Shown here: positions 25,937 to 64,000 of the stretch, in pieces
Layout of the letters: each line of letters begins with the position of its first letter
Numbering within the stretch: the first letter of the stretch is position 1
Source of the DNA: an uncultured Candidatus Saccharibacteria bacterium
Lineage (GTDB): Bacteria > Patescibacteriota > Minisyncoccia > 2-02-FULL-40-12 > GWA2-44-9
Assembly: GCA_964356795.1 (NCBI GenBank)
Contig: CAYHIK010000001.1
Span: 3,111 to 67,110, forward strand
DNA length: 64,000 bases
Direction of reading: 5' to 3'
Position numbers and translations under genes: made by a program
The notes under the pieces: generated by a model
Database searches by the model: none
Seen by the model: the letters and a program-made list of their open reading frames with translations, nothing else
Told to the model about the DNA's origin: nothing

Positions 25937-25939
25937 AGA

Positions 25940-27359: not shown

Positions 27360-28421
27360 CTATTTCTTGCGAAGATGGAAGTGGCCGTTTTCGTCTTTCA
27401 CGAATGTGCCAGAATCCTGGAGATTCAATAGAATCGTATTCTCCTTTACCAAGCGTACCGAGCTCACGCGAGCAACCAACTCCACGCGTGGCAATGGCTT
27501 GCCATGTGAGCGAAGGATATCTACTAGCACATCTTTGACGGTGCCCGATTTATATCCCCACTCGGAGAGCGCATACATACCGCGGCCAACGAGCACAAAT
27601 CGCTTGTCCTTGATGAGCTCATTGTGCACGGTCTGCACGTTCACCTTCTTTGCATCAAATTTTGCCACGTTGATAAGCTTCGCAATCTGGCTGAAGTGCT
27701 GAGGCTTTTCTGCCTGCTTGATCACCAAATACGCCTTATCGCGAACACCCTTGGGACGAATCTGGCTCCAGTGGGTCAATCCCATCTGGCCAAAAATATT
27801 GCATCCGAGGTCCTTGCAAATAGCAGAAATCGTTGCGAGGTGCTTATCGGTAAACTTTGAACCATCGAGTGCGGATACATTATTTTTCGTCGCAAGCTCA
27901 ATGACCTGGCCCACGGGAATAACCGAATTATGAGACTGAAGGGCGGACGTGAGCGCCGCAACCTGCGCGCGGAACGCATCGAGGGTCGCGCGGCTACGCG
28001 TCCAAAACGCGTGGTAGTGGTCGTTGTCCGCCATACGAATCAATTCAGTGTCGAGTGTAAGTGCAAAAATAAGAGAGGCATTGGCGACGGTGTCCTTGTC
28101 GTTTCCTGACACCATTTTGAACAATGCTCGCTCACGAACAACCCCACCCTCCCGAGCAATCAAATCCTTCATACTTGATGTAAATCGAGTCAATTCACGA
28201 ATATCTGAAGCATGCTTTGCGAGCTGAGCAAGCGCGAACTCTTCAATCTGTCGAACGCGTTCACGAGTGATTCCGTACCCCTTACCGATGGATTCGAGCG
28301 TTTCCTTGGTGCCTGTCTTCAAACCAAAGCGCCGTGAGACGATATCACGGTTACGCGGATTGAGCGTTTTGACCAACTGTGCGACTGACTTGGTCAGGGT
28401 TTTTACATCGATAGTTGCCAT
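27360..28421 (-). CDS. sigma-70 region-4-like HTH domain protein
   Basis: N-terminal ...GITRERVRQIEEFALAQL, the sigma r4 HTH signature, followed by a ~300 aa domain of unknown function. Likely ATG at 28421; the track ORF starts at TTG 28487. Confidence 0.45.
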   Translation of the reverse strand: MATIDVKTLTKSVAQLVKTLNPRNRDIVSRRFGLKTGTKETLESIGKGYGITRERVRQIEEFALAQLAKHASDIRELTRFTSSMKDLIAREGGVVRERALFKMVSGNDKDTVANASLIFALTLDTELIRMADNDHYHAFWTRSRATLDAFRAQVAALTSALQSHNSVIPVGQVIELATKNNVSALDGSKFTDKHLATISAICKDLGCNIFGQMGLTHWSQIRPKGVRDKAYLVIKQAEKPQHFSQIAKLINVAKFDAKKVNVQTVHNELIKDKRFVLVGRGMYALSEWGYKSGTVKDVLVDILRSHGKPLPRVELVARVSSVRLVKENTILLNLQDSGTFVKDENGHFHLRKK

Positions 28422-28526
28422 ACGTTTGCATCTGTTATCTAAAGCAATGCCGTCCTCTCGGGGCAGCACGCCTACATACAGTAGCAATTATTATTAAACT
28501 CGTCAAGCCCTCCCGCCAGACACTCC

Positions 28527-46271: not shown

Positions 46272-47537
46272 TTATTTGCACCCCCGAAGCAACGCACGCT
46301 CATACCACTCAAGTGCGCGTTGCGTGTGAATTGCTCGAGTAAAATGCGCTTCGACACGCTCGCGACCAGCAACGCCCATACGCTGTCGAAGCTCGTCATC
46401 GCCTAAGAGTTTCGAAATTGTTTCCGCCATTCCGTCGGCATCAAATGGATTCACCACAAAACCCGTAACACCATCGGCAATAATCTCCGGAGTCCCTCCA
46501 AAGCGTGTACCAACAACGGGCTTTCCCGCAGACATCGCTTGCATGACCATGAGCGGAGCTGGGTCGAAATAAATCGACGGCACCACAACAATGGTTGCAG
46601 CTGAAAACAATGCGGCACGCTCCCTTTCGTGGAGGAGATCGATGCAACGCAGGGCGTGAGATGCGCCCTTCTGTTCTGCGTAACGAATCAGGGAATCCCG
46701 ATACCCACCACGTTCAATTGCCATCACCACGAGAGCGCCTGGGTGAGACTTAAGCACCTGGGGAAGCGTATTGATGAGCACCTCGGACCCCTTATCCTGC
46801 ATGGCACGCCCTCCAAATAGCACGATGGGGCGATTCCCAAAACCAAGCCGCTCACGCAAAGCTACAACCTCGCTATCTGACGCCTGAAACTCAAGCGGCT
46901 CGACACCATTGTAGAGTGTCGTGACGTTCTGAATACCATTTTGGCGAAGCGCATTCCCCAGCGCATCCGAGACGGAAAAAATTGCATGCGCGCTTCGGAG
47001 CGACCGCCGGATACTCCACCTTCGAAATGGATTAAAGGCCTTCCCAACTTGGCGGATAGTAAACAGTATTGGGACGCGATAATCAAACGGACCACGCTGA
47101 TGCGCATTGCTCGAATCAATAAAGTGATAGAGACGCGTATACGCAAAACTCAACGTGTCATGCAGTGTAATGAACACGGGAATGCCAATCGCGTGAATCC
47201 ATCGAAGCGCCGCAAATGAAAAATGCTCGTGCACATTGTGGGCGTGCACAATATCCGGTTTGAGTTTTTGTATAATTGAAAGAGTCGCTGAGCGTATAAA
47301 TGGATTGTTTGCGGAAAGATACGAACGCACAAACTGTGATGTTCGTGGGGCATAGATTCGATGCACCGATATGCCCGCATACGTCGAAACGCCCTCGCCT
47401 TCCTTGTTCTGCGTCGTGGTAATCACATCTATGCTATGCCCGCGCGCCATCATGCCCGATGCCATGTCGAGGGCAACCTGTCCCGCGCCTCCCACACTTT
47501 CAGGCGCAAACGAATCGGTAATATATACAATCTTCAT
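46272..47537 (-). CDS. glycosyltransferase family 4
   Basis: MKIVYITDSFAPESVGGAGQV N-terminus and a GT4 C-terminal EX7E region (...FGGTPEII...). ATG at 47537. Confidence 0.75.
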   Translation of the reverse strand: MKIVYITDSFAPESVGGAGQVALDMASGMMARGHSIDVITTTQNKEGEGVSTYAGISVHRIYAPRTSQFVRSYLSANNPFIRSATLSIIQKLKPDIVHAHNVHEHFSFAALRWIHAIGIPVFITLHDTLSFAYTRLYHFIDSSNAHQRGPFDYRVPILFTIRQVGKAFNPFRRWSIRRSLRSAHAIFSVSDALGNALRQNGIQNVTTLYNGVEPLEFQASDSEVVALRERLGFGNRPIVLFGGRAMQDKGSEVLINTLPQVLKSHPGALVVMAIERGGYRDSLIRYAEQKGASHALRCIDLLHERERAALFSAATIVVVPSIYFDPAPLMVMQAMSAGKPVVGTRFGGTPEIIADGVTGFVVNPFDADGMAETISKLLGDDELRQRMGVAGRERVEAHFTRAIHTQRALEWYERALLRGCK

Positions 47538-48154
47538 TATTTCTTTTTCACAATGATGAAGCTGTCCGAAAACACCTTCCGGGGATGCGACCACTGATCA
47601 AACCAGAGAAGCGCGCCGTCGATTCGCCGCATTAACCCCTTTCGTATGCGCGACTGCTTCTTGTAGGGATCAAAGACGAGAAACTTCAGATATGAAGACA
47701 GAAGTGCCCATATGCCGCCATACACCCCCCTCTCTACAACATCGCACTGATGGCGCCGAGCGATAGCGCTCAATCCTTCGGGGGTGTACCGGAAAAAGTC
47801 GCCCGGATCTGCGTGCACAGGCTGGGTGAATGGCGCAGTAATAATCGCATGACCGCCAGAGCGCACCACGCGCGAAATCTCACTCATGAGCTGTTCGGGA
47901 TGAGGAACGTGTTCAAATACTTGATTACAAATGACCGTATCAAATTCCCCCTCTCCGAATGGCATATGCAAAACATCGCCCACGACGTCGACGCCGCCGC
48001 CTGCGGATGTATCGATGCATGTGTACGACGTGGCATGTTGAAGGATAAACGATTTGTATTTTGTCGCTGAGCCGCCACCCGCATCAAGTACCCGCCCAGA
48101 GATATATGCGCTTGCATGCACTAATACATCTCGCGTTGTGTGAATATTTTTCAT
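47537..48154 (-). CDS. class I SAM-dependent methyltransferase (type 11)
   Basis: VLDAGGGSATKY motif I and DTVICNQVFEHVPHPEQ. It is a paralogue of the MTs at 48151-48795 and 58314-58973. Confidence 0.7.
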   Translation of the reverse strand: MKNIHTTRDVLVHASAYISGRVLDAGGGSATKYKSFILQHATSYTCIDTSAGGGVDVVGDVLHMPFGEGEFDTVICNQVFEHVPHPEQLMSEISRVVRSGGHAIITAPFTQPVHADPGDFFRYTPEGLSAIARRHQCDVVERGVYGGIWALLSSYLKFLVFDPYKKQSRIRKGLMRRIDGALLWFDQWSHPRKVFSDSFIIVKKK

Positions 48155-48795
48155 TTCTTGAGAATGGCAAGCCAGCCCATAGTATGCTTTTTATTTGCGG
48201 CGCTCGTATCAATCCTGTCTAAGAATATCGCGCAACGCCCTACAATGGAAAAACATCGGCTCGCGATGGCGCCAATAATTCTATGTCGGTAGAGTCCACC
48301 ACGATCAATGAAGTATCTGATGCAGAATTGCGTCATCATAGAGAACATCCCGCCACGGGGAACGAATCGCACAACCGAAAGACCACACTCGCCCGCGATA
48401 CTCTCAATCCAATACTTTGTGAACCGAGAAAAATCATACGGCTCTTCATGTAGTTCGCACGCCTGCGGAACCGTTAGCAAGATCGTACCCCTAGGTCGAA
48501 GCACCCTGCTCATTTCGTGCATTGCCTGCTCAGGATGCACAACATGTTCGAGCACCTGTGTGCACACAATTCCATCGAATGACGCATCGGGAAATGGAAT
48601 GTGTTCGGCCGAACCGACGACATCAATGCCGTCCTCCTTTCGGATATCCATTCGAACATATGAATCAAATGTAAAGTAGTGTCGGTAACGCGCGACCGAA
48701 CCAGCCCCAACATCAAGCACCGCGCCTCCGATGTGCGATGCATGTTCTTTGATGTGCCGGTCAAGCAACATGCGATCAATTTGGAAGATTTGCAT
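48151..48795 (-). CDS. class I SAM-dependent methyltransferase (type 11), tandem paralogue
   Basis: VLDVGAGSVARY and DGIVCTQVLEHVVHPEQ. ATG at 48795, 4 nt from the flippase stop. Confidence 0.7.
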   Translation of the reverse strand: MQIFQIDRMLLDRHIKEHASHIGGAVLDVGAGSVARYRHYFTFDSYVRMDIRKEDGIDVVGSAEHIPFPDASFDGIVCTQVLEHVVHPEQAMHEMSRVLRPRGTILLTVPQACELHEEPYDFSRFTKYWIESIAGECGLSVVRFVPRGGMFSMMTQFCIRYFIDRGGLYRHRIIGAIASRCFSIVGRCAIFLDRIDTSAANKKHTMGWLAILKK

Positions 48796-48799
48796 AGCG

Positions 48800-50131
48800 T
48801 TATGCTGCTGACGCCGTACGTAGATAGCGCCGCGTATACAAGAATATCGTAGCGTGAGCAATGACATACCATGCCGTCACAATTCCAATCGTACCCCACG
48901 CGCCAAAGTGTTTTATCGCAAACAACGCAAGAGGTACGCCGACTCCTAGGTTCACCGTGTGCATTATGATAGAAACATGAACCTTATTGAGCGCTCTCAA
49001 AATTGAACCAAGACCTACGCCAAGACCCATGAGCGCACCGTAGGGAACAAGCGCGTACACATAGCGCACGCTCTGCGCAAATTCAGGGCCATAGAATATC
49101 TTAAACGCTATCGGGGCCACAAGCGCGGCCCCAAGAGTGAGCCCCGTCGAGATGCCGACCGCATACATAGTGACGCGGACAAAGTTTCTCGAGAGTCGCG
49201 CAACTCCCTGTACTTTCATTTTTGGAAATTCAACATTGAGGAGCATTCCTATGGGACCGAGAAATCCAAGCGCCAGGTTAATGTACGCAAATGCGAGTTT
49301 GAAAAACGTAACTTCCGACGGTGATACATAAATACCCGTGAGAAGGATGGGGAGGATGTTGTAGAGATTCGAGAGATTCCTATCAACGGCAATCCAGAAG
49401 CTATATCGCAAATATTTCTGAATAGAAGCTTCGCGCGCATACGCAAGCAAATCTCGAATCCTCGGAAGTATCGAAAAATCTCGCTGTAATCTCTTCCACA
49501 CAACGACTGACGCGATGCAGAGAATGCTTGCACCAACAAAATGACCAGACACGATACCGCCCACACCAAACCCCGCTATCACAAACGAGAGAGCAAACGT
49601 GGTGCGCAACATCTGATCACTCAATCCAAGTATCGTCATCTGGCGAATGCGCCCCACAACCTGGGAGCCAATCGTCGAAAAAGAATACGCCGTCGTCGAG
49701 ACGATCGATGCACAGATAACAACCGCCGCGAACCATCCAATCGCGGTCGTGCCATAGAGCTGATACGAGATAAGTGGTGCCAGCGCCGCACCAAAGAGCG
49801 TTACAAAACTCATGATAACGGTAATCTTCACAAGAAACGCCAGCGCGTCACGGATTTCTCGCGCATCTTTCCGCGCATACGCCTCGCCCAGAATCGTCGT
49901 CACTGCATCCTGCGCTCCTACGCCAAGAAAAATTGAAATGAACCCCGCGAGACTGAATGTAAGCGCGTATACGCCAAATGCTTCGGGCTGAAGCACGCGA
50001 GCCATAATAATACCCGCAATAGCTTGGAATACGTTTCCAAACATGCTCCCCGCCTGAAGAATGGCAGTATTTCGGACAAATGTATGGGTGCGAAAATACT
50101 CGATTTTCTCTCGAATCTGCGCGATTGACAT
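48800..50131 (-). CDS. Wzx-type oligosaccharide flippase (MOP/polysaccharide biosynthesis protein family)
   Basis: 443 aa with about 12 TM segments and a typical PST-family N-terminus. Confidence 0.6.
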   Translation of the reverse strand: MSIAQIREKIEYFRTHTFVRNTAILQAGSMFGNVFQAIAGIIMARVLQPEAFGVYALTFSLAGFISIFLGVGAQDAVTTILGEAYARKDAREIRDALAFLVKITVIMSFVTLFGAALAPLISYQLYGTTAIGWFAAVVICASIVSTTAYSFSTIGSQVVGRIRQMTILGLSDQMLRTTFALSFVIAGFGVGGIVSGHFVGASILCIASVVVWKRLQRDFSILPRIRDLLAYAREASIQKYLRYSFWIAVDRNLSNLYNILPILLTGIYVSPSEVTFFKLAFAYINLALGFLGPIGMLLNVEFPKMKVQGVARLSRNFVRVTMYAVGISTGLTLGAALVAPIAFKIFYGPEFAQSVRYVYALVPYGALMGLGVGLGSILRALNKVHVSIIMHTVNLGVGVPLALFAIKHFGAWGTIGIVTAWYVIAHATIFLYTRRYLRTASAA

Positions 50132-50166
50132 GCGCGCATACTAGCACGGAATGACGCGAAAATAAA

Positions 50167-53100
50167 CTAAAATAGCGACTTTATATATTCTTGCGTCAGC
50201 ACCCCCGCATACTCAAATAGCACCGTGTGCTCCCCTGCAGGGATGGGGAGACCGTGGAAGAGGTAGTTTGCCATGTAGGATTGTGTGGGGGCGCCGTCGA
50301 TGGTGATACGCCATCCGGGGAGATTTGATTCGGAGAAGACGAGCCAGCGATCATGATTTGTTTTTGTCATGAGGCGAAGGTATCCGTCACGGTATGCTTC
50401 GATGGTAATGGAGTCGGATGAGGTGTGTTGATTCTTGATTGCTCCACAATCTGCGCATTCGATGAATGTGGTGTTTGCGAAGTTTGCATTTGATTCGATG
50501 ATTGTTTTGAAATTCTTCTCTTCATCAGTCTCGGATACATGCGTAATGCCCCGTGCAAAGTAGATGCGGGGCATGACAGTCGTGTTCTCGTAGAGATAGA
50601 TGGGGATGTTGAATCGCGTAGATGATGCCTCTTCGAGTAGCTGCAGACCAGAGGTTGCGGGGAGCTCATACGCGGAGATGAGGTACTTCACGTTCAGCAT
50701 GGAGAGGACGGGGAGGCGGTGTGAGAAAAGAGATAGTTTTTCGGGTAGCGAAATGCTTTCATTTGCGAGCGATGCAAACCGCTGGTTCGATTCACTCCCC
50801 ACAAATGCCAGAACTCGCTGCCCCCTTCGTGGCGCCATCGGCTCATAGCCGTCGATGGTCGCAATGCCTCGCAGAAGGCCGGTATTGGGCATGAGCGAAT
50901 CAATGCCATACATCATCGCATCTCTGGATGCACCCTCATTGATTGCGGATATGCGCTGAGATCCTGCAGAACCATAGAGGAAGCTAAACGTACGAAAACT
51001 CATCGCATCATCGCCTCTCGAAAGAATCGCATCCGCGATTGGGGGCGACGAAGAGAGCGTATCAGACCGCGCAAACGTGTGCCCCATCATTCCCGATACA
51101 CCAAGCAACACACACGAAGTAACCACGGACGCCACGGCAAATGCCTTCGCATCTCTCGCATATTGGGCCACCAGATAGACCGCAGCGATAGATGCTAGAG
51201 CGATCAAGAAACTTGCATCTCCGAGCGAAAAATTATCGAAAGAATTTTTCACGATTCGCTCGATGAGTGCGTGGTAGTACTCAAGAGGAAGCCCCGTCGT
51301 GCCCTGATACATTTTCTCTGTGAATTGATGCTGAACGTATCGGATAATGCTCTCGCCCGCCACTGCAAATACCAGAGTTGCTGTCGTGGCAATGCCAAGC
51401 ACGCTAATAAACGCACGTCTTGAATATAGCTGGATACTCGCCCTCACACCCTCCCAATGCTCTATCGTCCACTTCATGCCATAGCCCGCCAGAATTGCCA
51501 TCGAAAAATTAAGAACAAACGTCCATCGAGCTGGCCCACGGAAATACTCCAACACGGGGAGCTGATGGAGTACCCAAAATATGGGGGAGTATTTAAATGA
51601 AGCAATAATCACACCAGCGCTCAGCAAGGCAAAGAATCTAACACTGGATTCGCTCTTGTACATCTTTGCCACCGCAATGAATGCAAATACGAGACCAAAG
51701 ATACCGATATACGGCAAAAATTCGGCGGACACACCGTATCGAAATGAAAAATACGGAAATACAAACTTTATCAAATCCAATGGCGTCGCCGCATCGACAC
51801 TTGCCTGCGCAAGAGTAAGACCGCCGACTCTCGTTGAAAGCGGAGTAAATACCGCCACATATATAAACTGCGGGAGTCCAATAATAAACGCCACGAGAAG
51901 CGCACCAATTGCACGCCCACTATCCCAGATGATGCCCCTCAGGCTCTTTCCCGCCTTGCGCGCCGCAGACTCAAGCCACAGCCAATAGAGCGCAGCGACC
52001 ATGAGCGCCATAATCACGAACTGTTGATGCGACCCCAAGAACGAGAGTCCAACGAGTGCCGAGTAAAACAGCGCCGCCCACCGTGACCCCCTCACCATAC
52101 TCCGCGCCATGAGCAATGATGCGGGCAACACATACACTGCGGAAACAACAGCGATATTTCCAAGCCAATGCGCGGTGAATTGGCCCAGTGTAAACGTAAT
52201 CGCGACAAAAAAGCTTACGAGCCGACTTGAGAATAATTGCCGAGCAAGTGCGTAGCTTAAATATCCCGCAAGGAGAGCAAAGAATACTACGAGTGCATTA
52301 TAACTTCCAGAAAAAGCGCGATAGATTGGATGAAAGAACCCCCACTGAAATGACGATGGAATCGGAAATCCCGAAAGAATCCCAGAAGTCCACTGAGTTC
52401 CCATGATTGAGCTATCCGGATAAAATACCCCAACCGCGTCTCCATCAAAGAAGATATATCTCTGCCCAAAGAATACGCCGAGACAAATGAGCGCAAATAC
52501 ACCAAGCAGTATAAATCTTCGACGCAACGGATTCTCATCATACGCGCCAAAAAAGCGCCGAGTCCAAACTTGAAGAAGTTCCCAGAGCGTGTAGACGTAT
52601 GATCCAATCGATATTCGAGATATAATTGGCGCCGTATACGTAATAGGTATCTCACGAATATCTAAGCCTCGAGCATTTGCAATTGCGAGCATCTCTATAT
52701 CAAACCCCCAACGCATGAGCGAAAGCCGCGAGAATAGTTCATGCGCCAAACTCCCACGAATCATTTTCAAGCCACGTTGAGTGTCGATGATATTCCAACC
52801 CATAACGAATCGGATTAATCGCTTTGCAAGAAGCCCCAATACGCCTCTTTTCCAAAATTGACCGCCAGGGGCGATGCCGGGAGCGGACGCGATTAATACA
52901 TCCGCGCCGTCACAGCATTGAGGCCAGAACTTATCCAGCTCTAAAACACTAATCTGCAAATCTGCATCTATGAAGAGTCGGCAGTCTCCCTGTGCCGCCA
53001 GCATTCCCGTTTTTACAGCTGCTCCCTTTCCTCGGTTTCGCTCATGCGACTTGATTTGGACATGTGAAAGATGGAGCCCTTCAACTACAGACCTCGTATC

Positions 53101-53253
53101 GTCCATAGATCCATCATCAACAACAATAATCTCACACGCCATATTCTTTGCATTGAAATAATCCGTAATCGTTTGAATGGTGCGAATAATACCCCTCCCC
53201 TCATTAAAGGCGGGTATAATAACTGACGTCAGTGTGGGTAGCGCTGATTTCAT
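50167..53253 (-). CDS. fusion protein: N-terminal GT2 (DPM1-like polyprenyl-P glycosyltransferase) + C-terminal YfhO-like GT-C polytopic membrane glycosyltransferase
   Basis: N-terminus SVIIPAFNEG...VVDDGSMDDT...DADLQ (the GT2 DxD motif). The remaining ~800 aa have more than 10 TM segments and a YfhO-like C-terminus. 1028 aa. Confidence 0.6.
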   Translation of the reverse strand: MKSALPTLTSVIIPAFNEGRGIIRTIQTITDYFNAKNMACEIIVVDDGSMDDTRSVVEGLHLSHVQIKSHERNRGKGAAVKTGMLAAQGDCRLFIDADLQISVLELDKFWPQCCDGADVLIASAPGIAPGGQFWKRGVLGLLAKRLIRFVMGWNIIDTQRGLKMIRGSLAHELFSRLSLMRWGFDIEMLAIANARGLDIREIPITYTAPIISRISIGSYVYTLWELLQVWTRRFFGAYDENPLRRRFILLGVFALICLGVFFGQRYIFFDGDAVGVFYPDSSIMGTQWTSGILSGFPIPSSFQWGFFHPIYRAFSGSYNALVVFFALLAGYLSYALARQLFSSRLVSFFVAITFTLGQFTAHWLGNIAVVSAVYVLPASLLMARSMVRGSRWAALFYSALVGLSFLGSHQQFVIMALMVAALYWLWLESAARKAGKSLRGIIWDSGRAIGALLVAFIIGLPQFIYVAVFTPLSTRVGGLTLAQASVDAATPLDLIKFVFPYFSFRYGVSAEFLPYIGIFGLVFAFIAVAKMYKSESSVRFFALLSAGVIIASFKYSPIFWVLHQLPVLEYFRGPARWTFVLNFSMAILAGYGMKWTIEHWEGVRASIQLYSRRAFISVLGIATTATLVFAVAGESIIRYVQHQFTEKMYQGTTGLPLEYYHALIERIVKNSFDNFSLGDASFLIALASIAAVYLVAQYARDAKAFAVASVVTSCVLLGVSGMMGHTFARSDTLSSSPPIADAILSRGDDAMSFRTFSFLYGSAGSQRISAINEGASRDAMMYGIDSLMPNTGLLRGIATIDGYEPMAPRRGQRVLAFVGSESNQRFASLANESISLPEKLSLFSHRLPVLSMLNVKYLISAYELPATSGLQLLEEASSTRFNIPIYLYENTTVMPRIYFARGITHVSETDEEKNFKTIIESNANFANTTFIECADCGAIKNQHTSSDSITIEAYRDGYLRLMTKTNHDRWLVFSESNLPGWRITIDGAPTQSYMANYLFHGLPIPAGEHTVLFEYAGVLTQEYIKSLF
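50193..50716. repeat. ~524-bp direct repeat, copy 1 (identical to 53255-53778)
   Basis: The two copies are offset by 3062 bp. The encoded C-terminal ~174 aa of both YfhO-like proteins are identical. The antisense 100-aa ORFs at 50367-50669 and 53429-53731 are also identical in the track. Confidence 0.85.
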
Positions 53254-55643: not shown

Positions 55644-57193
55644 GATTTCTTTGCAATCACGAACACGTTGTCATACAGATTAATAGGGATGCTAAGCGAT
55701 GCGAGCCACGACCGCTCGATGACGCGCGCAAAACGACGCACCACAGCAATGCCAGACCAAGAAGCAAGTATCGAGAAGACATACGGAACTGAAAATGATT
55801 TACCAATTGCACCCATTGAGATAACGGTAAAGCCAGCGCGCTCTAGAGCCGTACGCAGTCCAGTCCTAGAAAAAAGCACGAGATGCTCGGGTGGCACGAT
55901 GAGGTGCCAGTGAACACCCCATAATCGAGCCCAAACGCTTCCACTATCCGGCGTGTTTATTGCGATAACTCCATCAGAATTCAAAAGCTTATGCGCAGCA
56001 GCAAGCGCATCGTGTGCGCTCGGCACGTGCTCAAGCACGTCCCACATAGTTACCACTTCGTAGCGCTCACCGGAATCACCCATTGACTCAATCGTTCCCT
56101 GTCGAATATCGAGACCTCTCTCGCGACCCTCCCCAGATGCAGACTCAGATATCTCCACTCCACGAGCGCGCATACCGTATCGATTCGCAAGCGCCACAAA
56201 ATATCCATTCGCCGCTCCAACGTCAAGAAGTGTAGCATCCAACTTCACGCGCTCCTGAATCGCACGAATATATGCGACAAATGTCGATTCTTGGGATTGC
56301 TTGTCACGCTCATAGTCCGCATATCCAAAGCCACCGCCCGCCCCGTGAAAATAGTCCTCTCCATACACGTAGCTCGTGTTGTGAGGTATGGGAAATACAA
56401 ATACCGATCCGCACCTCTTTGATCGATACACCGAGTGTCCATTTCGTCGGCCCATCAATTGGCCATCGCGCTCATCACAAACAGGACATGTAACTTTTTG
56501 TGCCCGTATCTTCCATGGCCCCATAATTCCCTCCCGAATTATGAATCCCGAAATTTTTGATTCGCCCTCTCGACGAGCTTGGAAAATGATGGGGGTCTCG
56601 CGAAATGTAGCACCAGATGACACCAGGGCATATTTAAGCTCCTGAAGAAATGCGTAGCCGGATAAATCGATAGCATCGAGGTCGATGGCGCGAAGGGCAC
56701 GAGTAGTGATGCATTGGTATCCTGTCGTCCAATCTCGAATTGGGTAGCGTAAAATCGTCCGCACGTATAGGTTGGCCCAATAGCTTAATTGCCGACGCCA
56801 TAATTCCCACTTCGCAATTCCCCCTCCCTTCACATAGCGAGAACCTATCGCAAGATCAACGTTCTTCGCTGTTGAAATGAGCTCTGGCAGATATTTGGGA
56901 TGATGCGAAAAATCAGCGTCCATCGTTACAACTCGCTCGACTGATCCATCCTTGAGCACCTCTTTGAATGCTGAAATGTAGGCAGCGCCGAGCCCTTGCT
57001 TGCCAGGGCGAGACATTAATCGAACCGATGCGTGCTTCTGCATACTCGCCCGAACCGCATCAGCGGTACCATCAGGAGAATTATCATCAACCACCAAGAC
57101 GCCCACATCGGGCGCACTCCGAAGAATCTCCTCAATCAGAGATGAGATGTTTCCTCTTTCGTTATATGTGGGCAGAATGACGACCGTTTTCAT
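55640..57193 (-). CDS. fusion protein: GT2 polyprenyl-phosphate glycosyltransferase + class I SAM methyltransferase
   Basis: N-terminus VVILPTYNERGNI...VVDDNSPDGT...DADFS (GT2). C-terminus TLLDVGAANGYF...VVTMWDVLEHV (methyltransferase motifs I and post-I). Confidence 0.65.
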   Translation of the reverse strand: MKTVVILPTYNERGNISSLIEEILRSAPDVGVLVVDDNSPDGTADAVRASMQKHASVRLMSRPGKQGLGAAYISAFKEVLKDGSVERVVTMDADFSHHPKYLPELISTAKNVDLAIGSRYVKGGGIAKWELWRRQLSYWANLYVRTILRYPIRDWTTGYQCITTRALRAIDLDAIDLSGYAFLQELKYALVSSGATFRETPIIFQARREGESKISGFIIREGIMGPWKIRAQKVTCPVCDERDGQLMGRRNGHSVYRSKRCGSVFVFPIPHNTSYVYGEDYFHGAGGGFGYADYERDKQSQESTFVAYIRAIQERVKLDATLLDVGAANGYFVALANRYGMRARGVEISESASGEGRERGLDIRQGTIESMGDSGERYEVVTMWDVLEHVPSAHDALAAAHKLLNSDGVIAINTPDSGSVWARLWGVHWHLIVPPEHLVLFSRTGLRTALERAGFTVISMGAIGKSFSVPYVFSILASWSGIAVVRRFARVIERSWLASLSIPINLYDNVFVIAKKS

Positions 57194-57196
57194 GCG

Positions 57197-58321
57197 CTAC
57201 TTCATTAATGAATCAAATGCCGCGCACACATCTTCAACCGTAATGCGCTCAACCTGACGGCGCGCTTCGGTATAATCATAGATGCGCGCGTTCATAATAT
57301 GCACCACTGGCTCCTTTCGCTCTTTCCAGAGCACCACTACGTGCCCCCGGCCCCGCGGAGGCTGCTCGCGCTCATCAACAGGCCCCACAATATCAACGGT
57401 CTTCACTCCGAATGCTTCGGCAATGTATACAGGACCCGTATCAACAGCAACAAAGACCTGCATTCGAGCCATGAGCGCTTTTAGTGCATCGAGGGAGAGC
57501 GCATGTGATGCATCAATGATTGGCGTACCGCTTGAAACAGCACCCTTGAACGCGATAACTTCTTCCGTGTCAGCTGGCCCACCGATGAGAATAATGCGCG
57601 CCGCATAGTGCGCATAGATATAATCGGCAACTCGCGCAAATCGATCAGCTCCCCAATTTTTTATTTTATTTCCGCTCGATACCGAAATACCAACGACAAC
57701 GTCATTCTCGCTGATAGAATTCTTTTGGAAAAAATTATCAATCTCCTCTCCTGCTTCGGAGGAAAATCCGAGATGCTTCTGCGTGTCGTCTGTAGTGATT
57801 CCAAGCGGCTCAAGAAGTCGTAAATACTCAGCCGGAGCATACGACCCCATGCGATGAGGTCGTGTGATCGCCACGATACTTAATAGTCGATACATCCGCG
57901 TATCGTTTGGGCTAAAGCCATTTTCAACGCGTGGAACCATAATCGCTTTTGCACCACCAAGATACGCGATAGCGAGCGCGGTAAAACTCGGAGCAACCGA
58001 AATGGCCACATCTACTGATAGTTGAGAAAAGCGCGCAAGAACCTCATCGAATTCTGTGAACGGTATATATTCATCAACGTCCTGATTATGACGAAGCAGT
58101 TCTTGATACTGTGGCTGGCCAACTACATACAGTTGAGATTTGGGATATGCCGACTTGAGCGCTCGGAACACGGGAGTCGTGCACACCATATCGCCAAGCT
58201 GCGCCATCTGAAATACAACAATGACTTTTGGGTTCTTTGGAGGCGTCTTTGCGAATCCGTGCAGCACGGCGTGGGCAACACCTCGAAGTAATATCGAGAA
58301 ATACGAGATTTTTTTATGCAT
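57197..58321 (-). CDS. glycosyltransferase family 9 (heptosyltransferase-like)
   Basis: QLGDMVCTTPVFRALK and DTGPVYIAEAFG, the GT9 signatures. Confidence 0.55.
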   Translation of the reverse strand: MHKKISYFSILLRGVAHAVLHGFAKTPPKNPKVIVVFQMAQLGDMVCTTPVFRALKSAYPKSQLYVVGQPQYQELLRHNQDVDEYIPFTEFDEVLARFSQLSVDVAISVAPSFTALAIAYLGGAKAIMVPRVENGFSPNDTRMYRLLSIVAITRPHRMGSYAPAEYLRLLEPLGITTDDTQKHLGFSSEAGEEIDNFFQKNSISENDVVVGISVSSGNKIKNWGADRFARVADYIYAHYAARIILIGGPADTEEVIAFKGAVSSGTPIIDASHALSLDALKALMARMQVFVAVDTGPVYIAEAFGVKTVDIVGPVDEREQPPRGRGHVVVLWKERKEPVVHIMNARIYDYTEARRQVERITVEDVCAAFDSLMK

Positions 58322-58973
58322 GATCGTGCTTGCTTGCTACGAGAAAAAAGGCGCTCGCAAACGCATCCTTTTCTTTTATCGATTTCTTGATGTCGCCATA
58401 GATAGCTCGAAACATCGAGGGCATCTTCTGTAGTATTTTCGCAAATGCAAAAAGTAAGAATTTACTCACCGCATTGAATCGCATACGACTTTGATATCCA
58501 GCTCGCTGTGCAAGAATGGCAAATGATGTTTGTGCGTCAGCCTCTGCTTCGAGTTTTTCTATTGTCCATCCTGAATGAAAAAGCTCTTGAAGTCCGTACT
58601 TTGTAAATCTCCAAAAATCTCCCGGGGCATCGTGTATGGGAAAGAGAAATGGAACGGAAACAATAATACGGCCACCCGCCTTCAGGCATCGACGCATCTC
58701 TGTGATAGCTCGGGCGGGTTCTTTGAGGTGCTCGAGAACCGACATGCATAGAACGACGTCGAATTCCCCATCTTGGAATGGAAGATCGTACACACTAGCT
58801 ACGATGTCTACGCCTGGGCCCGGCTTAATATCGATTCCCGTTCGGTGTTGGAAATACGAGCCATAGCTGGGCTTCCCATAGGAGCCAACCTCCAGCACCC
58901 GCGCATCCGAAGCGTACGGGGCAATGAGTGTGTCGAGCCTTTTTCTGCTTATTTTGTCTGTGAGAAAGCTCAT
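58314..58973 (-). CDS. class I SAM-dependent methyltransferase (type 11)
   Basis: RVLEVGSYG and DVVLCMSVLEHLKEP. Paralogous to the two MTs at 47.5-48.8 kb. Confidence 0.7.
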   Translation of the reverse strand: MSFLTDKISRKRLDTLIAPYASDARVLEVGSYGKPSYGSYFQHRTGIDIKPGPGVDIVASVYDLPFQDGEFDVVLCMSVLEHLKEPARAITEMRRCLKAGGRIIVSVPFLFPIHDAPGDFWRFTKYGLQELFHSGWTIEKLEAEADAQTSFAILAQRAGYQSRMRFNAVSKFLLFAFAKILQKMPSMFRAIYGDIKKSIKEKDAFASAFFLVASKHDHA

Positions 58974-59054
58974 TTTTGCTAGACTTTACGATACCACGCT
59001 CGCACAAAAACAAAAAGCCTTGTATTTACTACTGTATACTATTAAGATTTCTCC

Positions 59055-59828
59055 ATGGAACAGAAGAGTGAAGCATATTATTACGACCTATCCCATAAGG
59101 AGGAACGCTGGGATCAGGGCGATAATAAGCGATTTATTACCCTCATCAACGAAACCGCCAAAGACGTACTCGAAATTGGGTGCGGCACCGCCAGTATCGT
59201 GCCATGGCTCAAGAAAGAGATTACCTATACAGGCGTGGACATTTCCGCGCTCGCTATTCAGCGAGCAAAGCAATTCCATGCAGGACGAGAGCGCACATCT
59301 TTTATTTGCGAATCAGTTGATTCGCTTAATCTTCGACCTGAAAGCTACGACGTCGTTGCAGCGTTCAACTCCCTTGAGCATGTGCGAAATCCCAAAAAAA
59401 TGCTGACACTTATACTGCGCGCATTAAAACCAAATGGCCACATCATACTCACAGGCCCAAATCTAGATTTACCGTGGAGCACACCGAATGGCATACGTCA
59501 TTATAAGGCTCATCAAATCTTCTTCTTTCGATTACTAAGAATGGGCGATTATATAAAAAGGATATTTGGATTTCTTCCTTTTCGCACGATTCCTGAAAAT
59601 TACACGGAATCAACAGGGAAATATGAGAAGCCAGACGATGATTTACGGCACGTACTATCCTCTTTTGAAGTTATCACATGGCTCACACGCAATCACATTG
59701 AAATAACATACACCCCTCAATTCCCTGCGTGCAGGAGCTACAAAGACTACATCAAGCGCGCAATCACATTTCTCCCAGGAATGCGCTACTACGGACGACA
59801 TTTTACTGTTATCGGAAAGAAGAAGTAA
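59055..59828 (+). CDS. class I SAM-dependent methyltransferase
   Basis: [12 protein letters not shown] motif I and [12 protein letters not shown]. It is the only plus-strand gene in the locus and overlaps the GT4 gene convergently by about 20 nt. Confidence 0.65.
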
Positions 59829-60942
59829 ATTCTTGTATGCTACGAGCTCGCTTCGTCCAAGAATATTTCTGAACTTCCTCGCGAGCGCGGACTGCTCGCT
59901 GGGCACCATCAGTCATCGCAGTGCGAATGCCCTGCGCCATTGATTCGCTGTCATCAGGAGTCACGAACACCGCACACTCATCGGATAACACCTCGCGCAA
60001 TGAAGGCAAATCAGATGCGACAATGGGCGTGCCCGACGCCATGTATTCGAATAACTTCAGAGGAGATGTGTAGCGACTCGATATTTTTTCCTTCTGTGAA
60101 TTCGGTAGCGCCACGACATCACCCGCCGACAAATACAACGGCACCTGCTGATGCGGAACAAACCCCCTGAATATAACGTTGGCGCTACCCCCATGCTTCA
60201 TTTTATATACTTGTATATCTTCTGGCGTTCCACCGACAAATACAAAAAGCATATCGGGCAGTGTTACCGCCGCCCCCAAGAGCGTGTCGACTCCCTTCCA
60301 TCCATAGAGATGGCCCGCGTATACGACTATTTTTTTATCCTGCGGCAAATCGAGCATAGTCCGAGCATCGGCACGATGTGGAACATTCTTAAACATCTCG
60401 AGGTCCACACCGTCGGGAGCCACCAGCACCCGCCCCATGTACACCCTCTCAATATCCTCGCACAACCCATTCGATATGGTGATAATCCCGCGAATTGCGT
60501 GGAGCACCTTTCTATATATATAGGACTGAATATTCTTAGGCATTGAATGCATCTCCCAATACATAGGAAGCTTGAGCGACCGAAGCACGAAAAGCGAAAA
60601 TGGGTCGCGCGAATAAATCACGCCTTGCGCGTGAGCGAGGTGTCGGCGTACGGCAAACCCAAATGCTAATTGCTGAAGCCAAAAAAAGAATTTCGCCAGT
60701 GGCGCGAACGTGGTCACCGTAATGAAATCGGCGGAGGATAATTTCGTTATTTTGAATCCATGCTTTATTCCATAATATTTGATTGGATCTTTTTCGGTGA
60801 TTGATGGGTATGTGCGCCTATCAGGAATGATGAGCTCACACTCAACACCAAGCGATGCAAACGCTTCGCACGTCTTCATAATCTGAAGGCCGTGCGCCTT
60901 TGGTGTGGGGAGTTGATTATTCGCGACGTAGTAGAGCTTCAT
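59809..60942 (-). CDS. glycosyltransferase family 4
   Basis: GT-B fold with a C-terminal EX7E motif ([19 protein letters not shown]). Confidence 0.75.
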
Positions 60943-61967
60943 ATGCTTAGTCCCGTTATTCGGAGCACCTCGGACATTCTATCGAGATACGTATGCGAAG
61001 CTCGCGTGCGCTCAAATCCCGCCCGCGCAATTCGCATGCGCTCTTCATCGTGGGCGAGGTAGTGTGCAACTTTTTCTCGTATATCGTGCTTGTCGTGAAA
61101 TGGAATAAATTCTTCGCCCTCCCTGAAGAGATTAAAAATCTCCTTCTTATCGTCTCGATTCAGTAAGAATCCGCCCGCACCCGTGATTTCAAATGGGCGC
61201 ACATTCACGCCCGTGCCGAGCACGTCGGATACATGCATACTAATCACCACCTTACTGCGAGCGTAGATACTCGCCATCTCCGAGCTCGAAGGATACCCAT
61301 GGTATACATCGTAGAGACTCGTATCCTTCCAGGCCTTGTTTCCCCATACGTGCAGACCCAAGTCTTTCACGCACGCGAGAATGTGCTCACGATCCGCATA
61401 TCGCACGCGGTCATACGACCCGATAAATGAAATGGGATATTCGTAGTTGGTATCGGGAAATGCCATATCCTTGGCAATATCGGCACAGAATGGAAGATAG
61501 TGGGCGTGCTGATATCCAGAATCAGCGAGCGTGGACACAACCAGCGGGTCAAAGTTAAAAAAATGAGAATAGTGCGGTGCGATTCGGAGCATCCGCTGGA
61601 GGTGGTCCATCGTTTCCGGATACCAGTTCACGACAACCGACCTCTGGCGAAGCTCGTCGAGCATATCGAGTCCGAGCGTCTTCCCCTTTGATACGAAGAC
61701 GAGGTCGGGCTGGAAACGACGAGCAACATCGAGAATATGGCGGTCTACTTTCCGAAGCTCTCTTCGGTGAAGTGGCTCGCGGATTACGCTCGGGAGCTTA
61801 TCGAATACTCGCTGAGGCAACGTATTCGTCATCAACAGCGTTGTCCCTAAATAATCAGCAAACTGAACCTCGCACCCGAGCTGTTGGAATGCTCGCGTGA
61901 TTGGTTCGGTGAAGATTGAATATCGCTGACTAATGAGGAGTACCTTTTTCATGAGATGGCTCGCCAA
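60939..61967 (-). CDS. CgeB-like / DUF3880 glycosyltransferase family protein
   Basis: The C-terminal third (...[13 protein letters not shown]...) resembles the GT1-like domain of the CgeB family; 342 aa. Confidence 0.4.
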
Positions 61968-62802
61968 GTAATGCGATACGAATTCTGAATTTTACAGAGC
62001 CGTACAGAAGTAGCCACTTATACTGAATGCGGCGAAATTCGTACATAGGCGGAAGTGTCTCCGAAAAACCGTGACGCGCATACATCCACGCAATACGAAA
62101 CAGTGTCCGCACTAATCCGCCAACATTCCGATATACAATCCAATACATAAACGTGCCGAGTGGAATTTTCACCGCTTCACGGATCTGAATTTGAATATGC
62201 CCACGATTCAAATTTGGCTCATAGGGCGGAATCCCGCCGTTCGGCTCCACGATAACGAACCACGGATTCTTCATAGTCCCTACGGGAAACTTCTTTGCAT
62301 CAAATGCTAGTCGAGAATGAGGCGTCCGCTCGTGTCGTATTCCTGACGCCCGATTCATGAGTCTCATCTGGTATCCGGGATATGCCGTTGAATGTCTAAT
62401 CTCCCGACCATTGTAATTAATGTGCCCAGGCAATTGGTAGATGTAGTGCTTGATGGGGGTCGTCGTAACGATTGCGCGAATTTCTTCGGCAGTTCTTGCG
62501 GGAAGCTCCTCGTCTGTATCAAGGTAAAAATTCCAATCATAGCGCCCCCCCTCGATGGCCTTGTTCCGAAGTGCCGCAACGTCTTTGAGTCGATAATTCG
62601 GCTGGTCAGTATCGGCTTGCTTCACGATGTGATTCGTATACTCCCGAGCAATCGCGAGCGTATCATCGGTGCTATTGCCATCGAGAATGAGAATATCATC
62701 GAACTCTTTCAGGCTCTCAAGGCATCGACGAAGCACGCGACCCGAATTGAGCGTAAACACCTGCGCAGTACACGGTATCTTGTTGTTATCGCTTGGCGAC
62801 AT
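61930..62802 (-). CDS. glycosyltransferase family 2
   Basis: ATG at 62802 (MSPSDNNKIPCTAQVFTLNSG...) with ILDGNSTDDT and DTDEEL (DxD). The longer track ORF, reaching 62997, overlaps the downstream GT4. Confidence 0.6.
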   Translation of the reverse strand: MSPSDNNKIPCTAQVFTLNSGRVLRRCLESLKEFDDILILDGNSTDDTLAIAREYTNHIVKQADTDQPNYRLKDVAALRNKAIEGGRYDWNFYLDTDEELPARTAEEIRAIVTTTPIKHYIYQLPGHINYNGREIRHSTAYPGYQMRLMNRASGIRHERTPHSRLAFDAKKFPVGTMKNPWFVIVEPNGGIPPYEPNLNRGHIQIQIREAVKIPLGTFMYWIVYRNVGGLVRTLFRIAWMYARHGFSETLPPMYEFRRIQYKWLLLYGSVKFRIRIALLGEPSHEKGTPH

Positions 62803-63970
62803 CGTGAAATAATGAAAACATTTTCTTACTAATGACCTCATTGCTGAAGTGGGAGACAATGTATTCTCGCCCATTCGCTCCATACTGCCGTGCTCTTTCC
62901 GGATTCTGCACCAATGCAACCATTGCCGCGTAGAGCGCATCCTCATCGTTGGGTGGAACCATGATGCCCGTCTTCTGATCAAGCAGAACCTCATCAATGG
63001 ATCCCGTATGGGTTGAAATCACAGGAACACCGCACAGTGAGGCCTCGGCAATTGAGTATCCAAACTGCTCCTCCCACCCGTCGAGCGGAATGCTGGGATA
63101 GAGAAATACATCCGCTGCATTATACAGTGCTGGCAATTTCTCATTTTCGGTAATCCAGGGCACAAATATAACTTCAGACTGTAATCCAAGACTATCTACG
63201 AGTGCTCGCAGTTCCGACTCATACTCTCCGCTCCCTACAATCAAGAATTTTACAGCATACTCGCCCTTCATGCGCGCCAGAGCACGCAATGCAATATGAA
63301 TTCCCTTGCGCTTTCCGAGGGCGCCGATAAAGAGAAACACCTTACTCCCCGTCAAACCGTACTGCCGAGAGACGTCTTCATGATTGATGCCTGGACGGAA
63401 TCGTTGCACATCAAATCCTGCGTGCAAAAATGTGCCTATCGCTATGTCTGACCCAAATGACTTCAGAATGCGCTCAGCTTTATGCATACCGCAAATCGCA
63501 CCATCCGACAGGGCGAGCGTTGCGCGTATAATCCATTGCTTCAGCCGATACCTTAGGCCTCTATCCTTCTCTTTATAGGGAATATTCTCCCAGTAGTGGA
63601 ATACATGCTTCATGCCAAACAACTTCGCCCAGAAGGCATTATAGAGCGTTGAGAGCACATTGGGCTCTCCTGTAGTGAAGAGGATATCTACTCCCTTCGT
63701 GAATCGAATCCACGCGAGCCGAACGACAAAAAATGGCATCCATCCCTTCAGGAGTCCGCCAATCACTGGGTACTGAGAATGCGTGAAGAATGCCGGCGAG
63801 TGGAAGATGTGAAACCCCTTTCGCGTGAACGGCTTGAACACGACTTTTCCATGCTTTGCCGTCCAGTTACTCGGCAAAATAAAGAAGAGGTGCTCCCGCT
63901 CGGGATACGACTCGAATACATCAAAGAGATTCTGACGTGTGTAGGTGTAGCCTGAAACGACGATATTCAT
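62786..63970 (-). CDS. glycosyltransferase family 4
   Basis: LFIGALGKRKG and the EX7E region FGYSIAEASLCGVPVISTHTGS. Confidence 0.75.
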   Translation of the reverse strand: MNIVVSGYTYTRQNLFDVFESYPEREHLFFILPSNWTAKHGKVVFKPFTRKGFHIFHSPAFFTHSQYPVIGGLLKGWMPFFVVRLAWIRFTKGVDILFTTGEPNVLSTLYNAFWAKLFGMKHVFHYWENIPYKEKDRGLRYRLKQWIIRATLALSDGAICGMHKAERILKSFGSDIAIGTFLHAGFDVQRFRPGINHEDVSRQYGLTGSKVFLFIGALGKRKGIHIALRALARMKGEYAVKFLIVGSGEYESELRALVDSLGLQSEVIFVPWITENEKLPALYNAADVFLYPSIPLDGWEEQFGYSIAEASLCGVPVISTHTGSIDEVLLDQKTGIMVPPNDEDALYAAMVALVQNPERARQYGANGREYIVSHFSNEVISKKMFSLFHDVAKR

Positions 63971-64000
63971 GGGCGCTCGCAGAGTGTGTTTATCGATGAA

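Follow-up and report, generated by a model that had tools for sequence, protein, structure and literature searches.

How might a bacterium decorate a glycan outside the cell with methylated sugars, when methylation needs S-adenosylmethionine (SAM), which is absent there, and must therefore occur inside? The question is raised by a surface-glycan locus of an uncultured Candidatus Saccharibacteria bacterium, contained in a stretch of 64,000 nucleotides (assembly GCA_964356795.1, contig CAYHIK010000001.1, positions 3,111 to 67,110), hereafter the window. Within this locus, a single open reading frame (ORF) encodes a 517-residue fusion of a family 2 glycosyltransferase (GT2) resembling dolichyl-phosphate mannose synthase (DPMS; DPM1 in eukaryotes) with a class I SAM-dependent methyltransferase (MT). 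An initial annotation, made from the nucleotide letters of the window, had singled out this fusion, and Pfam indeed finds both domains in the one ORF, with the lipid-phosphate residues of DPMS kept. The reading that is favored here, and regarded as probable, is that the locus directs a Wzx/Wzy-type glycan pathway with side-branch modules whose product would be a methylated polyprenyl-phosphate sugar, to be transferred to its acceptor outside the cell.

The amino-terminal, DPMS-like half of the fusion (residues 1-231, nt 56501-57193) has a GT-A fold and a DXD metal site. Its best solved relative is the DPMS of Pyrococcus furiosus (E 1e-29; 32% identity over the catalytic domain), and its best matches are polyprenyl-phosphate glycosyltransferases (GTs) only, namely DPMS, ArnC, and GtrB. 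Residues were mapped in an alignment of 32 fusion proteins sharing 30-84% identity, and the equivalents of DPMS E12, D39, D89/D91 (the DXD motif), H94, R117, G122, R131, S135, R202, and K208 are kept and invariant in all 32. In the P. furiosus enzyme, R117, R131, and S135 form the dolichyl-phosphate (Dol-P) phosphate site "conserved in bona fide DPMSs" (PMC5526996), and their counterparts in the fusion are R119, R133, and S137. Likewise, E12 and the A-loop residues R202 and K208 of DPMS couple donor binding to loop closure, while D39 contacts guanine (PMC5526996); in the fusion, the A-loop pair corresponds to R207 and K213. The boundary of the GT2 half, at about residue 231, coincides exactly with the onset of the DPMS membrane domain, which is replaced by a Zn-ribbon and the MT. 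No membrane helices are predicted in the fusion protein, and both DPMS-type interface helices are. DPMS truncated at residue 230, which likewise has no membrane helices, is still membrane-targeted and fully active, so a version without transmembrane (TM) helices is plausible as an enzyme; DPM1 itself is TM-less. Unlike the DPMS of archaea and eukaryotes, the fusion has a bacterial host, and undecaprenyl phosphate presumably takes the place of dolichyl phosphate as its lipid.

The carboxy-terminal half (residues 232-517, nt 55643-56500) opens with a CxxC...CxxC ribbon, as does TcaB9, and continues with a class I MT core. An AlphaFold2 (AF2) model of the fusion is of good quality by its scores (predicted local distance difference test, pLDDT, 89.5; predicted template modeling score, pTM, 0.77), and the best structural matches of this half are TcaB9, KijD1, and MtmC, the best of them, a sugar MT, leading the generic MTs by 3.6 Z units. 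Sequence similarity to characterized MTs is weak (E ~1e-7), with ~20% identity to TcaB9. The SAM-motif residues D324, G326, G330, E347, and D385 are invariant across the fusion family, as are H389, E436, and H437, the equivalents of TcaB9 H181, E224, and H225, which were mutated in solved TcaB9 mutant structures. Since the SAM-binding and putative catalytic residues remain invariant over 30-84% identity, the domain appears to be under selection as an enzyme. Judged by these residues and by its Pfam match, it is a genuine methyltransferase domain, as the initial annotation had supposed.

The resemblance to TcaB9 has its bounds. Just ~55 residues follow the MT core, with hydrophobic and amphipathic helices at residues 466-499, and neither PF08421 nor PF08484 (the C-methyltransferase N- and C-terminal domains) is matched in Pfam at E up to 0.01; the protein is therefore not classed as a member of the TcaB9 family, TcaB9 being its closest fold only. 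In contrast to the nucleoside diphosphate (NDP)-hexose C-3 MTs TcaB9, KijD1, and TylCIII, with which it shares the ribbon, the core, and the His-Glu-His residues, the fusion MT is without most of the third domain and is joined to a lipid-carrier GT. Moreover, TcaB9 Y222 is a proline in the fusion. The third ribbon cysteine, at least 90% conserved across the family, is a serine at residue 258 in the clade of the window (the window protein, P0001, and P0002, where P codes denote protein cluster representatives and L codes, below, the loci or contigs of relatives). The resulting CxxC...SxxC arrangement suggests that metal binding may be altered.

Full-length GT2-MT fusions account for ~70 clusters (90% identity) among the best 120 matches, all of the taxon-named ones being Patescibacteria, and full-length representatives are present in a 50%-identity library too. 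An assembly or frameshift artifact was considered and rejected, the fusion being a single ORF in the window and in ~70 independent clusters. Database names of the relatives are confined to "glycosyltransferase", "methyltransferase domain-containing protein", and "dolichol-phosphate mannosyltransferase". The two halves also occur as separate proteins. In L088, for example, a 233-aa GT2 (matching window residues 1-233 at 63%) is followed by a 293-aa MT (48% to residues 232-516), and the gene order is that of the window: GT2, MT, YfhO, and GT2-YfhO fusion. Such split pairs, encoded by adjacent, overlapping genes, were found in L088, L005, and at least 20 metagenome loci. Further variants bring in a membrane domain, P0021 consisting of a GT2, a GtrA/DPMS membrane domain, and an MT, and P0080 of a membrane domain and an MT. 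A genome scan with the full-length fusion alignment returned, among the matches listed, mostly ordinary DPMS-like GT2 proteins from many phyla, L005 being the only relevant one. A separate observation concerns L134 (4573-6846), where an MT domain seemingly lies at the C-terminus of a 758-aa protein with nine TM segments, and a DPMS-like GT2 is encoded directly downstream, which makes it a further fusion variant of this module.

A multi-pass membrane protein adjoins the fusion in every fusion locus inspected. This neighbor belongs to the YfhO family in the window, L001, L003, and L088, to PMT_2 in L086 and L087, and to GT87 in L089, while the remaining neighbors, 529-612 aa long, have 10-11 TM segments and match nothing in Pfam. 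The 10-11 TM proteins are encoded at L085 8535-10124, L087 8547-10319, L088 1610-3286, and L090 4150-5988 and 7992-9737; four of the five (L087, L088, and both of L090) are mutually 19-28% identical, and the L085 protein has no blastp match to them. The L087, L088, and L090 proteins may, by their sequences, represent an undescribed GT-C-like family. An unbiased view of the neighborhood was provided by 35 metagenome loci that contain an MT homolog with at least 2.5 kb on both sides: a multi-pass protein is encoded within 1 kb of the MT in 28 of them, and in 12 of the 13 loci with close orthologs.

In the window, the membrane neighbor is YfhO2, whose gene start overlaps the stop of the GT2-MT gene (55640-55643). 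A hydropathy scan places ~12 TM segments in residues 1-510 and leaves a soluble domain of ~290 aa after them; classical YfhO, in comparison, is described with 12 TM segments and a large loop between the last two, so that the proteins of the window differ in ending with the soluble domain and no final TM. The next gene, at 50167-53253, is a single ORF that joins a GT2 (residues 1-240, nt 52534-53253; Pfam stretch at residues 10-174), a YfhO-like multi-pass part, and a C-terminal soluble domain. Its GT2 part carries a DADLQ motif and has ArnC, GtrB, and DPMS as best PDB, sequence, and fold matches, and its C-terminal 780 residues are 45% identical to YfhO2. This architecture was found in only five clusters, all near this clade and one of them (P0264) 100% identical; at the same position, L001 has a separate MT gene instead of the GT2 part, followed by a plain YfhO. 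Both YfhO-like proteins pass the PF09586 gathering score, their best-matching stretch being the last ~70 profile positions only. After TM1, the G and D of an (N/D)GD motif and the F-Y of an FYP motif are invariant in eight sequences. On the strength of the C-terminal Pfam match, the topology, and the conserved acidic motif, both proteins are candidates for a GT-C fold.

Pairings of this sort are familiar from the CsbB/GtcA/YfhO systems that act on teichoic acids in Bacillus, Listeria, and Staphylococcus, in which a cytoplasmic GT2 makes an undecaprenyl-phosphate (C55-P)-linked sugar, the product is flipped, and a YfhO-family membrane GT transfers the sugar outside (PMC7389260). Likewise, each of the two YfhO-family proteins in the window is encoded together with a carrier-loading GT2 of the ArnC/GtrB/DPMS kind, by overlapping genes in one case and by a fusion in the other, and the GT2 and YfhO arrangement is kept in L001, L003, and L088, while in L085-L090 the partners are other GT-C-like proteins. 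The differences lie in the fusion of one pair into 1028 aa, in the MT carried by the other GT2, which is without membrane helices, and in the Wzx/Wzy-type context, no teichoic-acid gene being present among the locus genes examined. The three-component module that the initial annotation proposed is borne out as far as the pairing goes; the teichoic acid or glycolipid acceptor that it attached to the module is not, since nothing in the locus indicates either. Its gene tally needs a similar correction: the three GT4, the GT9, the CgeB-like protein, the Wzx, and the GT2 and YfhO domains are all there, and the second GT2 and one YfhO, counted separately there, are the one 1028-aa ORF.

How these parts could work together may be sketched as follows. 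The locus encodes a priming transferase (TIGR03025 above cut-off), a PF01943 flippase, and a PF04932 Wzy_C protein, as expected of a Wzx/Wzy-type pathway. In the main line of this pathway, the WbaP-like transferase would prime undecaprenyl phosphate, and GT4, GT2, GT9, and CgeB-like enzymes would assemble an oligosaccharide in the cytoplasm, where the stand-alone MTs would methylate sugars of the lipid-linked oligosaccharide or nucleotide precursors. The oligosaccharide would then be flipped by Wzx and either polymerized or ligated to an acceptor by the Wzy_C-TPR protein, which may, to judge from its domains, be a polymerase, a ligase, or a protein O-oligosaccharyltransferase. In the first side branch, the GT2 of the fusion would put a hexose, probably from a GDP-sugar, on polyprenyl phosphate at the inner membrane face, and the TcaB9-like domain would methylate the same sugar; the methylated polyprenyl-phosphate sugar would be flipped, and the translationally coupled YfhO-like protein (53250-55643) would attach the sugar to the glycan or another acceptor outside the cell. 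A second side branch would follow the same logic within one polypeptide, the 1028-aa GT2-YfhO protein. A Wzz or polysaccharide co-polymerase (PCP) chain-length regulator was not among the family matches of the proteins at the locus. Divergent from the priming transferase, the gene at 40774-42525 (minus strand) encodes a 583-aa protein that matches nothing in Pfam or NCBIfam and has two TM segments (residues 4-22 and 386-404); its topology may resemble that of a Wzc/PCP chain-length regulator, a likeness of topology alone.

The order of loading and methylation within the first side branch deserves separate consideration, although either order would end in a methylated sugar on the lipid carrier. 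A slight and tentative lean is toward methylation of the lipid-linked sugar, because the nucleotide-binding third domain is missing, the C-terminal helices are hydrophobic, and membrane-tethered variants exist (P0021 and P0080). The ArnC/ArnD/ArnT pathway offers a precedent for modification at the level of the carrier, which adds to this lean: a GT2 loads undecaprenyl phosphate, ArnD deformylates the lipid-linked sugar at the cytoplasmic face, and flipping and GT-C transfer follow. It differs from the proposed branch in that the modification is a deformylation, the proteins are separate, and the acceptor is lipid A.

Conversely, the MT could act on a GDP-sugar in the manner of TcaB9 or TylCIII, possibly C-methylating a GDP-4-keto-6-deoxyhexose, after which the GT2 would load the methylated sugar. 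This order is considered somewhat less likely, and several points favor it: TcaB9, KijD1, and MtmC are the top structural matches, the equivalents of H181, E224, and H225 are kept, and the MT core follows a Zn-ribbon, as it does in TcaB9. In addition, a GDP-mannose 4,6-dehydratase is encoded directly beside the GT2/MT pair in five loci (L005 8459-9418, L096 4008-5123, L099 2-733, L117, and L134), which is also compatible with a GDP-4-keto sugar being methylated before its transfer and hints at a GDP-6-deoxy or 4-keto hexose as the donor in those five genomes. Just past the end of the window lies a gene for a cupin/FdtA-like protein, whose family members act on 4-keto sugars, and the proposed synthesis of virenose includes a C-3 methylation of a GDP-4-keto sugar (PMC3539893), a proposed precedent at the level of GDP-sugars. 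Against these points stand the Pfam result on PF08421 and PF08484, the replacement of Y222 by proline, the tail helices at residues 466-499, which suit a membrane or lipid substrate better, and the tethering of the MT to a membrane domain in P0021 and P0080. Moreover, no dehydratase, GDP-mannose 4,6-dehydratase included, is visible in the locus of the window.

Returning to the favored reading, a Wzx/Wzy-type pathway with methylating side branches, a number of observations weigh against it. The DPMS residues Q93 and K178, which contact mannose and metal, are replaced by S96 and A181 in the fusion, which leaves room for a donor sugar other than mannose; the GT2 half would belong to a wider carrier-loading group, in which the name mannose synthase is not established for it. 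TcaB9, KijD1, and MtmC act on nucleotide-sugars and give C-methyl rather than O-methyl products; with TcaB9 as the closest solved relative, the O-methylated sugars suggested in the initial annotation are no more than a possibility. The dehydratase genes in the five loci point in the same direction as the order of steps just discussed. The association of GT2 and MT is strong only among close orthologs, a DPMS-like GT2 being encoded within 500 nt of the MT in 8 of 13 such loci and in 13 of all 35. An AF2 model of GT2-YfhO, built from eight sequences, is poor (pLDDT 57.8, pTM 0.46) and lends the GT-C assignment no support, a Foldseek search with it having returned ArnC, GtrB, and DPMS as the top 23 matches and no GT-C match. 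No dedicated small flippase (GtrA/GtcA, PF04138) was found among the locus genes, which is a further departure from the CsbB/GtcA/YfhO systems, and the Wzx-like gene beside the module is the only flippase candidate. Finally, the fusion family, these YfhO-like proteins, and the small MTs are known from sequence and models alone, and the host is uncultivated.

A flippase role for a Wzx-like protein has a counterpart in the archaeon Haloferax volcanii, where AglD, AglR, and AglS (a Dol-P-mannose synthase, a Wzx-like flippase helper, and a transferase that depends on Dol-P-mannose) add the final sugar outside and a SAM-dependent MT, AglP, takes part in the pathway (PMC3871713). Unlike in the window module, AglP is a separate protein with no fusion, and the process is archaeal N-glycosylation. 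It reportedly methylates a hexuronic acid of the oligosaccharide, not a monosaccharide on a separate carrier.

A case of an MT and a GT in one polypeptide is known from a different kind of system. WsaE of Geobacillus, a protein of one MT and two GT domains, adds a 2-O-methyl group to the terminal rhamnose of an S-layer glycan (PMC2943079), and a capping reaction of this or the WbdD type could be envisaged for the window, in which the GT2 would add a terminal sugar to a growing glycan on undecaprenyl diphosphate (Und-PP) in the cytoplasm, the MT would cap it and so halt elongation, and the YfhO-like proteins would be unrelated. WsaE is after all a described MT-GT fusion from a surface-glycan locus, and the present locus is rich in cytoplasmic GTs and MTs. 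Capping is nevertheless very unlikely in view of the intact Dol-P site and the Wzx/Wzy context. The MT of WsaE is N-terminal and sits beside two rhamnosyltransferase domains that work on the growing chain, whereas the fusion GT is of the carrier-loading DPMS type, with a full lipid-phosphate site and A-loop that are family-invariant and with best matches to polyprenyl-phosphate GTs only. In the known methyl-capping systems, methylation ends the chain and export goes through an ABC transporter, but the present locus encodes Wzx and Wzy_C without any ABC transporter, and capping leaves both the GT-C-like adjacency and the fusion to a DPMS membrane domain unexplained. Least credible of all is the notion that the MT acts on some other substrate, such as a lipid or protein, or has only a structural or SAM-sensing role: class I MT folds are promiscuous, the similarity to characterized MTs is weak, and the family is still one of predicted proteins, but the SAM-binding and putative catalytic residues are invariant, the best structural neighbor is a sugar MT with a clear lead over generic MTs, and the coupling of the MT to DPMS-like and GT-C-like genes is persistent.

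It is tempting to extend the favored reading of the window, with its methylating side branches, to the family as a whole. Such an extension, offered as possible rather than probable, would hold that a bifunctional DPMS-MT makes a methylated monosaccharide on polyprenyl phosphate, the methyl group being added on the carrier, that a GT-C protein delivers the sugar outside, that the family is widespread in the envelope biosynthesis of Patescibacteria, and that the unnamed 10-11 TM proteins are new GT-C-like users.

The locus that harbors these modules, from the genome of a groundwater patescibacterium, measures ~29 kb in all and carries eight MT domains from at least five unrelated MT families, the stand-alone MTs falling into at least four. 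Its left edge is at 42621, where the WbaP/EPS-type priming phosphoglycosyltransferase is followed by the Wzy_C-TPR gene, and its right end lies at least 6.7 kb beyond base 64000, as seen on L091, a groundwater metagenome contig from the Hainich aquifer that is 100% identical to window 55912-64000 (blastn). The interval 46272-63970, which the initial annotation took for the locus, contains the genes described there and falls short of this full extent on both sides. The extra 6.7 kb on L091 encode an FkbM-type MT, two class I MTs, the cupin/FdtA-like protein, a polysaccharide deacetylase, and three GT4; GT4c has an identical protein on L091, where these eight further glycan genes lie upstream of it. 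In the window, the genes of the locus are tightly packed on the minus strand according to the ORF list, with MT4 and the priming transferase on the plus strand (Table 1), and the proteins closest to their products are from metagenome-assembled genomes of Patescibacteria. The remainder of the window consists of core genes, including murG, murE, mraY, ftsW, lon, secA, secD, and aspS.

Table 1. Genes of the surface-glycan locus within the window, with coordinates, strand, and supporting matches
Feature	Coordinates	Strand	Evidence
Priming polyprenyl-phosphate phosphoglycosyltransferase, WbaP/EPS_sugtrans type, 454 aa, 5 TM	42621..43985	+	Pfam Bac_transf E 9e-63; TIGR03025 364 bits vs cut-off 296
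Wzy_C membrane protein (O-antigen ligase/polymerase-like) with C-terminal TPR	43982..46255	-	Pfam Wzy_C E 1e-13, TPR families
GT4a	46272..47537	-	Glycos_transf_1 E 8e-29, Glyco_transf_4 E 2e-24
MT1, class I SAM MT, 205 aa	47537..48154	-	Methyltransf_11 E 2e-14
MT2, paralog of MT1/MT3	48151..48867	-	Methyltransf_11 E 1e-15
Wzx-type flippase, ~10 TM	48800..50131	-	Polysacc_synt PF01943 E 9e-14; TM scan
GT2-YfhO fusion, 1028 aa	50167..53253	-	Glycos_transf_2 E 8e-27; YfhO 43.8 bits vs cut-off 28.5
YfhO-like GT-C candidate (YfhO2), 797 aa	53250..55643	-	Pfam YfhO 61.8 bits vs cut-off 28.5
GT2-MT fusion, 517 aa	55640..57193	-	Glycos_transf_2 residues 5-168 E 1e-23; Methyltransf_23 residues 314-459 E 6e-26
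GT9, heptosyltransferase family	57197..58321	-	Glyco_transf_9 E 2e-16; Heptosyltransferase III model 81 bits, below cut-off
MT3, paralog of MT1/MT2, 219 aa	58314..58973	-	Methyltransf_11 E 7e-15
MT4, class I MT, most AT-rich gene of the locus	59055..59828	+	Methyltransf_11 E 2e-19
GT4b	59809..60942	-	Glycos_transf_1 E 2e-22
CgeB-like glycosyltransferase	60939..61967	-	Glyco_trans_1_2 PF13524 E 6e-30; DUF3880 PF12996 24.5 bits, under 25.2 cut-off
GT2c	61930..62802	-	Glycos_transf_2 E 4e-11
GT4c	62786..63970	-	Glycos_transf_1 E 1e-36

Several starts in the mechanical ORF list were over-extended, and likelier ones were chosen from start codons and the lengths of relatives. The Wzy_C-TPR gene likely starts at ATG 46255 (757 aa; longest ORF to 46399; relatives 756-761 aa), GT4a at ATG 47537 (421 aa, as in relatives; longest ORF to 47594), and GT2c at ATG 62802 (290 aa, as in relatives; longest ORF to 62997), while MT2 perhaps starts at ATG 48795 (214 aa).

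Pfam confirms the five class I MT domains that had been reported in the interval 46272-63970, and the further claim of four stand-alone genes, three of them paralogous, proved right as well: MT1, MT2, and MT3 share 37-41% identity pairwise (E 1e-24 to 5e-32), and MT4 is only distantly related to them. Orthologs of MT1 (66-76% identity) occupy the same position in L001 and L003, whereas MT3 has an ortholog in L003 (86% identity) and none in L001. MT2 occurs only in the locus of the window, and blastn alignments with L001 and L003 leave it uncovered; a recent tandem duplication of MT1 was rejected as its origin, the identity of the two being just 37.5%. Assignment of the MTs to ubiquinone, menaquinone, rRNA, or tRNA pathways, an outcome of the kind that the initial annotation had named as refuting it, was likewise rejected, as all of them score below the cut-offs of the MT models for ubiquinone, rRNA, and tRNA (UbiE, UbiG, and CmoB models gave 18-54 bits against cut-offs of 103-420). 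High MT content is, to our knowledge, exceptional against well-studied O-antigen and capsule loci, and in that comparison the locus may be called unusually rich, as it first was; within this Patescibacteria clade, high content is the rule, with 4-8 MT domains per locus (L001, L003, L086, L088, and L090).

The comparison with two relatives, L001 and L003, at 72-78% nucleotide identity also reveals a locus whose frame is kept and whose cassettes are exchanged (blastn). For example, one GT4 in L001 takes the place of GT9 and MT3, the FkbM MT is swapped for a carbamoyltransferase in relatives, and the MT4 slot is occupied in relatives by a B12-binding radical SAM enzyme. The latter, a 468-aa protein (L003 6744-8150) that fills this slot in three relatives, may be a class B radical SAM methylase, in which case the MT4 slot would hold a methylating enzyme either way. 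Repeats at the junctions of the MT4 and MT2 cassettes were limited to short, chance-level matches, so there is no sign of a mobile element there. The locus is lower in G+C than the rest of the window (49.5% vs 52.7%; 1-kb windows, Mann-Whitney p = 1e-7), MT4 being its lowest-G+C gene (44.3%). The shift toward AT noted in the initial annotation is thus real yet small, and its view of the locus as a variable island is upheld by the exchange of cassettes.

Much of what the locus encodes has been described elsewhere, including fusions of GTs and MTs in general (as in WsaE), three-component systems, and MTs in glycan loci, and the initial claim of an undescribed fusion must be narrowed to that extent. 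What was not found described is the fusion or coupling of a carrier-loading DPMS-type synthase with a sugar MT, methylated polyprenyl-phosphate monosaccharide donors, and single-chain GT2-YfhO modules; open-access full text yielded no account of a DPMS-MT fusion, nor one of YfhO in Patescibacteria, which is weak evidence of absence. If the favored reading is true, a synthase-MT fusion would explain how methyl-sugars arrive in extracytoplasmic decoration, and a new type of donor would join the few polyprenyl-phosphate sugars. Methyl groups on surface sugars alter hydrophobicity, phage and host recognition, and resistance to glycosidases. Patescibacteria are mostly uncultivated episymbionts with tiny genomes, in which the surface presumably mediates attachment to the host, and the devotion of ~29 kb of such a genome to a variable, heavily methylating locus suggests that the surface glycan is under diversifying selection. 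Moreover, the fusion and its split forms are small and have no predicted TM helices, so their expression and assay should be feasible without culture.

A few genes elsewhere in the window also merit mention. The gene at 27360-28487 (minus strand) encodes a 375-aa protein with the unusual combination of a sigma-70 region-4-like N-terminal part and a stretch with a weak likeness to RNA polymerase delta (TIGR04567, 31.5 bits; cut-off 42). Amid the core genes, 24287-27268 (minus strand) encodes a VirD4/TraD-like coupling ATPase (549 aa) and a neighboring 442-aa protein without a family match, a pair that may be part or remnant of a type IV secretion or DNA-uptake system. The beta-CASP/metallo-beta-lactamase RNase at 10325-11692 (minus strand) has "type VII CRISPR Cas14" as its top NCBIfam match, at 356 bits against a cut-off of 800, and is most likely an ordinary RNase J/CPSF-like enzyme, not a Cas protein. 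Finally, the aspartyl-tRNA synthetase at 21366-22781 (minus strand) is just 471 aa long and matches the bacterial model in two stretches, and so seems to be without the bacterial insertion domain.

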